Of a stretch of 6,181 nt of DNA, positions 1,992 through 2,602 are shown in pieces. The notes under the pieces are model-generated. The model worked only from the letters and a program-made list of their open reading frames with translations. It was not told where the DNA came from and made no database searches. Every line of letters begins with the position of its first letter. The stretch's first letter is position 1. The stretch lies in the IMG/VR virus record IMGVR_UViG_2693429562_000008; one strand, 5' to 3'. This DNA comes from a virus (taxonomy: Duplodnaviria; Heunggongvirae; Uroviricota; Caudoviricetes). Made by a program: the position numbers and the translations under genes.

Positions 1992-2101
1992 TATTCATTC
2001 TTCCAGATTCCTTCCGGCAGAGCCTTATACTGAAATATACCTGGCTCAGGATATTGTTGAAAATATTTTATGTTTGTCAAAAATAAAAGTTCTGTTAAGT
2101 A

Positions 2102-2455
2102 TTGATTGAGTGTTTGTTATACGGTCTAATGGTTTTTTCAGCATTAAATATTTATCATTCATATGGTGTGGGTAGAGTGAATATTGATGAGGCGTCGGGG
2201 TGTTTCATCCTTAGGCAGCGTATTGATATAGTCAATGCAGCACGAGCAAAGGCCTTCAGCCGTTTGACAGTTTTGTTCTGTACTCCTGATCGTCTTTCGG
2301 GAAGAGACGTTATTATTCTGAATAGTGATGCTATACAGAGGGTTTGCGATGAGTTCATGGTTGCTAATTCAGAATTATTTGCTCTTGTTCAGGAGTACAA
2401 CAGAATAGCCAGGACCTGTGGTATGGATGAACTTCGGATTACTCATCTGGGGTAG
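2102..2455 (+). CDS. hypothetical protein in AT-rich island (117 aa from TTG; start uncertain)
   Basis: Only sizeable ORF in the AT-rich 1992-2460 segment. No clear Shine-Dalgarno; alternative starts ATG 2129, GTG 2168 and GTG 2177. Enriched in rare codons (ATA x3, AGA x3, AGG x3, CGA x1 in 117 codons). No domain recognised. Confidence 0.35.
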   Translation: MIECLLYGLMVFSALNIYHSYGVGRVNIDEASGCFILRQRIDIVNAARAKAFSRLTVLFCTPDRLSGRDVIILNSDAIQRVCDEFMVANSELFALVQEYNRIARTCGMDELRITHLG

Positions 2456-2602
2456 ATACATATCTGGATTATCACCTGTTACGGTAAAAAGTGATTGCTT
2501 ACTGTTTTTGTGAATGGCATTGCAGCAGCCGGATAATGTCAGTGCTGGCTGACGGTGTGCTGGTGGCGGGTGTGGTGGTTGTTGCTTTCCCGTTGCTGAA
2601 AA

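Follow-up and report, generated by a model that had tools for sequence, protein, structure and literature searches.

In a window of 6,181 nucleotides from the late-regulatory region of a lambdoid prophage, the reading frame that follows the first tRNA cluster contains what is almost certainly a genuine protein-coding gene of 92 codons, located at positions 2177-2455 on the plus strand, with a stop at TAG and, in all likelihood, a start at the GTG at 2177. The gene is self-contained mobile cargo that occupies variable slots in enterobacterial prophages and on plasmids beside adhesin islands. The best overall explanation, to which we give about even chances, is a small mobile cargo gene for a protein-binding modulator. 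Taken separately, the modulator activity is a tentative assignment, and a link to AraC-family regulators, suggested by gene placement, is doubtful. In kind this is an ordinary feature, a prophage cargo gene of unassigned function that is already catalogued as hypothetical; what is added here is a corrected start, the demonstration of selection, the unusually wide carriage in Escherichia coli, the omission from RefSeq and the hint of an AraC connection.

The window begins with an 85-aa ORF (154-411, from the ORF listing) and a RusA gene (411-785), followed by the gene for the Q antiterminator (782-1636; PF03589, E 7e-55). A pR'-like promoter was spotted by eye at 1601-1628 (TTGATT, 16 nt, TAAATT), and an intrinsic, tR'-like terminator just 3' of Q on the plus strand (1676-1695; a 7-pair stem with 5 GC pairs, then a T run) marks where the late-operon cargo zone begins. 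The leader between pR' and this terminator (1596-1702, plus strand) gave a weak Rfam match to Trp_leader (25.7 bits, E 0.059, below the gathering score), which probably reflects nothing beyond a promoter-proximal terminator hairpin, as in the short late transcripts of lambdoid phages.

Cluster 1 lies next, entirely on the plus strand. It consists of an ileZ-like tRNA-Ile2 gene with anticodon CAU (1739-1814), which ARAGORN calls Met while the identical gene is tRNA-Ile in RefSeq; a degenerate argN-like tRNA-Arg (UCG) remnant in the middle (1822-1905); and an argO-like tRNA-Arg gene with anticodon UCU (1915-1991), identical to a RefSeq tRNA-Arg. The remnant was called neither by ARAGORN nor by Rfam. 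It aligns with an intact copy at 4369-4445, except that its central (anticodon) part no longer aligns and it is a few bases longer. Downstream of an AT-rich spacer and the 92-codon gene are a DUF3927/TciB-like gene for a small hydrophobic product of 43 aa (2491-2622, plus strand; DUF3927 in RefSeq, PHROG 1470 (TciB-like) E 7.8e-13), a DNA methyltransferase gene partly under N runs, the complete tRNA cluster 2 (4286-4535), which includes the intact tRNA-Arg (UCG), the STnc100 sRNA (5213-5402, plus strand; RF02076, full-length, 132 bits, E 7e-30), an IraM-like anti-adaptor gene on the minus strand (5428-5763; NCBIfam NF007393, E 4.7e-48, above the curated cut-off) and the start of a DUF1737 gene. 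The corresponding module of E. coli 042 reads Q, tRNAs, an unannotated gap, DUF3927, IraM, DUF1737, holin, a YdfR-family gene and lysozyme, an order which assigns the window region to a cargo zone bounded by Q and the lysis genes. The proposal in the initial annotation that this position is a cargo slot is thereby borne out, since it falls in a variable zone between Q with its tRNAs and the lysis genes.

Several further features of the window were recorded. The IraM-like gene has 6 ATA among its 112 codons. The 5' part of STnc100 is repeated twice (~2688-2739 and 4610-4650), each repeat running into an N stretch, indicating that a module of tRNA cluster, DUF3927 tail and STnc100 was duplicated in the prophage. 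Four N runs (2740-3049, 3116-3256, 3336-3390 and 4651-5127) hide parts of the methyltransferase gene as well as the DNA that follows tRNA cluster 2. The last of them, 477 nt long, corresponds to the stx position of Stx phages, yet is too short for an stx operon, which measures ~1.2 kb.

GC content falls sharply past the tRNA genes, as had been claimed, from 0.500 (1-1991) to 0.388 (1992-2460). In 200-nt windows it drops from 0.54-0.555 across the tRNAs to 0.345-0.41 after them, and the core gene itself stands at 0.44. The spacer between tRNA-Arg and the ORF region (1992-2101) has a GC content of 0.345-0.405 and promoter-like matches on both strands; a consensus scan found four promoter-like sites in the spacer region where 1.6 were expected. 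Among the regions compared, variant density between near-identical copies peaks in this spacer, with 13 sites in 110 nt. An Rfam search of 1992-2460 found no RNA family. The frame that had originally been described, a plus-strand ORF at 2102-2455 with a TTG start, 117 codons and 10 of them rare (three ATA, three AGA, three AGG and one CGA), is present exactly as reported.

The length of this ORF exceeds chance only modestly: a stop-free run of 118 codons in 1992-2660 was matched by 2.4% of mononucleotide shuffles. A P value of ~0.02, poor start signals and the lack of any RefSeq feature at 43 of the 45 places listed would all suit a frame left open by chance in AT-rich DNA that is non-coding, whether spacer or regulatory. 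Relatives were collected by a word-indexed search (n=17) and by a profile search that added more, at 34-63% identity. Over the 92-codon core, dN/dS ranged from 0.22 to 0.31 in comparisons with E. coli relatives and was 0.16 with a Salmonella relative, in pairs at 40-63% identity. Comparison of codons 26-117 of the window ORF with the E. coli prophage locus L003 gave a dN/dS of 0.26, with 24, 23 and 44 changes at codon positions 1, 2 and 3, respectively, so that substitutions are mostly in the third position. Purifying selection across this divergence speaks against a non-coding spacer. Within the lineage, 13 of the 279 nt of the core vary among 82 near-identical copies (7 synonymously and 6 nonsynonymously), indels and stops are absent from it, and its variant density is half that of the flanks. 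Together with a same-length protein family conserved across genera, a confident structure model and the negative Rfam result, these data effectively refute the non-coding alternative, which we regard as extremely improbable.

The same comparisons locate the start of the gene. Codons 1-25 of the long frame diverged from L003 with a dN/dS of ~0.86 and 11, 10 and 12 changes at codon positions 1, 2 and 3. In the near-identical copies, the corresponding 75-nt extension carries one synonymous and five nonsynonymous variants and, in L020, a 1-nt deletion, and its variant density is the same as that of the flanks. In strain STEC1585 (L004), a 4-nt deletion in the extension shortens the open frame ahead of the core to 5 codons, and the core itself is intact and identical to that of L003. 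Both deletions, in L004 and in L020, thus disrupt the long form alone and spare the core. The start signals of relatives are in agreement: L011 has AGGAG 4 nt before its GTG, and the plasmid relatives have an ATG at the equivalent position with a stop codon immediately 5' of it. In addition, in an alignment of 17 diverse members (91-106 aa, with identity as low as 18%), the N-termini coincide at the MNIDE position. We therefore place the start at GTG 2177 on the combined grounds of divergence, within-lineage variation, frameshifts, relatives' start signals and family alignment.

It follows that the 117-codon extent originally given to the ORF does not hold, the conserved gene being 92 codons long and codons 1-25 not being under selection. 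The non-conserved N-terminal extension (2102-2176, plus strand), which contains an ATG at 2129 besides the TTG at 2102, is most likely an untranslated leader and not conserved coding sequence, as judged from these sequence comparisons. Within it, a candidate -10 box, TATCAT (2153-2158, plus strand), would lie ~19 nt 5' of the GTG; L011 shares this hexamer with the window, L003 and L004 have TATAAT in its place, and all of these fall inside a conserved TTAT.AT block. The consensus scan missed TATCAT because of its poor -35 and listed TTGAAA-16-AAAAAT at 2057-2084 instead. The earlier remark that the start codon was unclear was apt. The Shine-Dalgarno sequence of the window gene is weak (GTGGGT), which would fit low expression.

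Three other interpretations of the frame were tried and rejected. A minus-strand ORF at 2155-2358 (67 aa), as well as the automatic minus-strand call in mEp460_ev081, was set aside because all conservation is in the plus frame. A terminator-like hairpin at 2291-2309 within the gene is weak, with 3 GC pairs, falls in conserved loop codons and has no counterpart in L003, so it was attributed to chance. Finally, the initial annotation had allowed that homology might expose a fragment of a known gene disrupted by rearrangement; the ORF instead aligns from one end to the other with relatives of 91-106 aa, which rules out a pseudogene fragment.

Since the initial annotation had tied the rare codons to the neighbouring tRNA genes, the alternative of a 117-codon gene starting at TTG 2102, with rare codons matched to the adjacent phage tRNAs, has to be weighed here. 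Its frame is open from 2102, and the TTGATTGA at its start is present in L003 too; public gene callers often give forms of 108-118 aa, and PHROG 2873 has a length of 108 positions. The window copy also has the most rare codons in the family, 9 in the core against 1-6 elsewhere. Set against these points are the unconstrained extension, its frame-breaking deletions in L004 and L020 and its absence from plasmid and distant members. The codon counts themselves do not exceed composition. When the protein was held fixed and synonymous codons were drawn by local base composition, 9.0 ± 2.1 rare codons were expected in the 92-codon core and 9 were found (P = 0.60); other frames of the same DNA contain 5-16 ATA, AGA, AGG or CGA codons; and the relatives L003 and L011, which are without tRNA genes in the DNA examined, have 5-6. 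Because the count equals the composition expectation and relatives without tRNA genes carry such codons, they are better read as a property of AT-rich foreign DNA than as co-adaptation to tRNAs. A codon/tRNA co-adapted phage gene would have rare codons above composition and dependent on linked tRNAs, and neither was found here. As for the statement that the adjacent tRNAs serve exactly these codons, it stands for AUA (Ile2 CAU) and for AGA and AGG (Arg UCU) but fails for CGA, since the Arg-UCG gene of cluster 1 is degenerate and is intact only in cluster 2. Taken together, the long, tRNA-matched gene is improbable. The phage tRNAs would nonetheless aid translation of the rare codons of the 92-codon gene.

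The 92-codon gene encodes a product of ~10.4 kDa that contains no tryptophan. Among the searches that had been proposed at the outset, profile searching was informative: the product matches PHROG 2873, a prophage family with no assigned function, over its full length (E 5.6e-58, residues 1-92 on profile positions 17-108), as do the relatives P0034, P0036, P0038 and P0018, and it matches the sister family PHROG 4827, which has no described function, with E 2e-5. An exhaustive HMM search of 1.84 billion proteins put the family at 27 cluster representatives, whose members, going by the organism names seen, are enterobacterial. R23 and N75 are invariant across the wide family, and Y74 nearly so. 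Pfam, NCBIfam and PADLOC returned nothing significant for either form (92 or 117 aa) or for distant relatives, which upholds the original observation that this real protein has no recognisable domain. A RHIM match (E 0.09) was dismissed as noise, a profile search of PDB sequences gave coiled-coil noise only, and the long profile-search matches P0037 and P0042 proved to be repeat translations and not relatives. Related-locus searches found none with P0036, and with P0025 in genome contigs only one short contig. No secretion signal, catalytic motif, membrane feature or DNA-binding domain was detected in the 92-aa product, nor did Pfam, NCBIfam or PDB sequences provide a match to an Stx A or B subunit or any toxin domain. 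No experiments on family members were found in the literature, where sources name the product hypothetical.

AlphaFold2, run with a nine-sequence alignment, produced a model with a pLDDT of 87 and a pTM of 0.74, in which two long antiparallel helices (3-34 and 50-81) are joined by a short beta-turn with a conserved 'TPDR' loop. On this model the product would be a small, soluble, cytoplasmic helical protein. Foldseek returned only generic helical hairpins, so the predicted fold gives no functional pointer. Its top matches, prefoldin beta subunits, share the helix/beta-hairpin/helix layout and raise the possibility of a function in the phage life cycle, be it in assembly (as a prefoldin-like chaperone), in lysis timing or in packaging, and not in lysogenic conversion. 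In keeping with this idea, members of the sister subfamily are located between the genes for the major capsid protein and the head-tail connector, or between lysis and terminase genes. No significant similarity to a prefoldin beta-type chaperone beyond the generic helical hairpin was found in structure or sequence, and we consider a life-cycle role unlikely.

The distribution of the gene among genomic contexts is that of mobile cargo. The O157 prophage L005 and JLK-2012 share its flanks and lack the gene, whose relatives occupy at least 5 different slots. The slot between Q and holin is used in both E. coli and Salmonella prophages, the Salmonella order being Q, ORF6N, tRNA-Thr and tRNA-Gly, the family gene, pRha and holin. 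In two other E. coli prophage lineages (L003/L004 and L011/L012) a DNA methyltransferase gene and a gene for a YdeO/GadX-like AraC regulator (241-242 aa) precede the family gene, which in L011 is followed by a strong terminator, a TerB-like gene, DUF3927 and holin. The sister subfamily, found in Morganella genomes and in phage ST64B (sb55), uses the capsid-connector gap or the gap from lysis genes to HNH/terminase. Plasmid members lie beside fimbrial operons on K99-type plasmids. On plasmid L110 (NZ_CP035861.1), an intact 96-aa member at 14572-14862, where no CDS is listed (also L009 3971-4261 and L010 ~3959-4258), is situated between a lytic transglycosylase gene and a prepilin-like gene in a bfp-like type IVb pilus operon, and the same island encodes an AraC regulator, a bona fide ANR, an Aat-like ABC/TolC exporter and an Lnt-like acyltransferase. 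As in morons, the gene is present or absent among related phages, its position differs, and it belongs to DNA of low GC (0.39 in the island and 0.44 in the gene, versus 0.50 upstream). With respect to signals of its own, there is a conserved -10-like hexamer with a poor -35, and the window gene has no terminator after it, whereas L011 has a strong one.

Downstream of the family member, the fimbrial plasmids invariably have a conserved ORF of 71-80 aa in convergent orientation (MFISFISRQNQDLLVNINDISLV...; L006 4829-5071, L007 4857-5072 and L008 4856-5071, all on the minus strand), which has no PADLOC match.

Small cargo genes of temperate phages often act in anti-defence or superinfection exclusion, and small mobile cargo in variable positions on phages and plasmids would agree with such a role. 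Against it, no PADLOC model matches the window protein, no recognisable defence island surrounds the gene and no known anti-defence protein stood out among the structural matches; this assignment is improbable.

The DUF3927 gene of the window begins 36 nt past the stop of the 92-codon gene and, as the scan found no terminator in between, is probably co-transcribed with it. This arrangement bears on a different proposal, namely that the ORF is the first gene of a three-gene cassette of TciA/TciB type (with a TerB-like protein and a DUF3927 membrane peptide) acting in envelope stress or exclusion, of which the window has a decayed copy that lost its TerB gene. The order ORF, TerB-like, DUF3927 recurs in L011/L012/L109 and L103/L104, the window retains the ORF followed by DUF3927, and the differing N-terminus of its lone 43-aa DUF3927 gene suggests that a TerB gene was deleted. 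Yet in L011 a strong terminator separates the ORF from the TerB gene, and the TerB proteins are near-identical while the adjoining ORFs are each 38-63% identical to that of the window, which indicates that the modules are mixed and are not co-evolving. Moreover, neither neighbour is found in most family contexts, and JLK-2012 has TciB without the ORF. A cassette function is thus unlikely. The TerB-like (TciA-type) and DUF3927 (TciB-type) pair itself, at 6392-7038 in L011 and 4489-5060 in L103, is strongly conserved between loci (phmmer E ~1e-85 to 1e-93), and loci with a near-identical pair have upstream ORFs that are only distantly alike. No functional literature on TciA/TciB or DUF3927 was found.

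The ORF is carried by 1314 of 5426 complete E. coli genomes, about a quarter, with at least 99% identity in 1179, and the carriers include the enteroaggregative strain 042 and ST131 strains such as EC958. Among 50,697 deposited phage genomes, mEp460_ev081 is the sole carrier. The RefSeq gap mentioned above is seen, for example, at 2256139-2256639 of NC_017626.1. The exact 92-aa product is in GenBank and UniProt as 'hypothetical protein', a 108-aa form is found on at least 1000 contigs, and older GenBank records and metagenome gene callers annotate the gene with three starts, giving products of 92, 108 and 117-118 aa. Owing to the RefSeq omission, the gene is missing from analyses built on RefSeq annotation. 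In the protein collection, the exact 92-aa product shares a 90%-identity cluster with 149-aa proteins named '50S ribosomal protein L9', and the representative of that cluster is 149 aa long; this looks like a clustering artefact.

How might the product of such a mobile gene act? In a lysogen, transcription would come from the gene's own weak promoter, and after induction read-through from pR' would transcribe it while the phage tRNAs would help to decode the message. Expression is expected to be weak because of the GTG start, the poor Shine-Dalgarno sequence and the nine rare codons. The protein probably oligomerises as a helical bundle and probably acts by binding another protein and not by catalysis, which is the most economical reading because no enzyme, membrane or DNA-binding features were detected. 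The best candidate partners would be AraC-family regulators of the YdeO/GadX/Psr type, or components of their regulons, because family genes are recurrently placed beside such regulators and adhesin regulons. The mode of action might then be like that of an anti-activator or connector (cf. ANR/Aar and TraM), in a protein that has no kinship to those families.

The YdeO/GadX-like gene is directly upstream of the family gene in both L003/L004 and L011/L012. The AraC proteins of the two lineages are 63% identical, the ORF pair has a pN of 0.24, and each lineage's ORF is 59-63% identical to that of the window; as the AraC pair is about as diverged as the ORF pair, regulator and ORF look co-inherited. 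On the other side, the O157:H7 prophage L005 has a related AraC-like gene (58% identical) and lacks the family gene, an HMM scan of all sampled loci found an AraC-like gene within 4-5 kb in only two of ~10 distinct contexts, and no AraC-like gene adjoins the window copy or the 1179 near-identical genomic copies. In addition, the pilus island already has a true ANR, so the family protein there could be a target of the regulon and not a regulator. Two further points favour the link: the L110 island has AraC and ANR genes around its intact 96-aa member, and the cargo that shares the zone with the window gene, namely the IraM-like anti-adaptor gene and the STnc100 sRNA, is regulatory.

If an AraC connection were true, a prophage copy in roughly a quarter of complete E. 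coli genomes, ST131 included, would tune host regulators of the YdeO/GadX/AppY type and would do so invisibly to RefSeq annotation. The placement beside AraC regulators and adhesin islands offers a cheaply testable hypothesis that links prophage cargo to acid-resistance and virulence regulation of the host. Should the gene be an inert passenger or a minor phage accessory, it would be just another hypothetical phage gene, with its start codon corrected.

Among known systems, the position of the window gene is that of the toxin genes of Stx phages. In phage 933W the stx slot is downstream of Q, the late terminator and a tRNA cluster of ileZ/argN/argO type, and upstream of the lysis genes; the window gene holds the same position, but its product has no toxin or Pfam similarity. 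IraM, whose target is RssB, offers a parallel as a small cytoplasmic regulator encoded in AT-rich acquired DNA and has no homology to the window product. The closest likeness is to PHROG 2873 and its sister PHROG 4827, which includes Sb55 of Salmonella phage ST64B: the proteins are of the same length class and share the predicted hairpin, R23 and Y74-N75. The PHROG 2873 profile differs in having 16 extra N-terminal positions, corresponding to the ATG 2129 form, which are judged here not to be conserved coding sequence. TraM, the anti-activator of TraR in Agrobacterium quorum sensing, belongs to an unrelated family and is a functional precedent.

The ANR family (Aar, Cnr, Rnr) consists of small, all-helical, oligomer-forming anti-activators of AraC/XylS regulators, whose genes are found on mobile virulence elements next to AraC-type regulons or inside them, and has a signature of A10, E14, A22, W26, A29, W43 and R47 that includes two conserved Trp (PMC4983702). 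The family described here resembles ANR in its small helical product and in that some members directly follow an AraC-like gene or reside inside an AraC/ANR island. Whereas ANR proteins are <10 kDa with three predicted alpha-helices, the PHROG 2873 product of ~10.4 kDa is predicted to form two long helices with a beta-turn and has no Trp. The ANR model NCBIfam NF033650 does not match it at E up to 1, and the same model does match the ANR gene that neighbours the family member in L110. ANR proteins bind their cognate AraC regulator and prevent it from dimerising and from binding DNA; for the present family, gene adjacency is what was seen, in two lineages and not in the window. That the family might represent a second, sequence-unrelated class of helical anti-activators or connectors, travelling with AraC/XylS-type virulence and acid-resistance regulators and working as ANR/Aar do, is accordingly a long shot, and the comparison with ANR would be one of functional analogy only.
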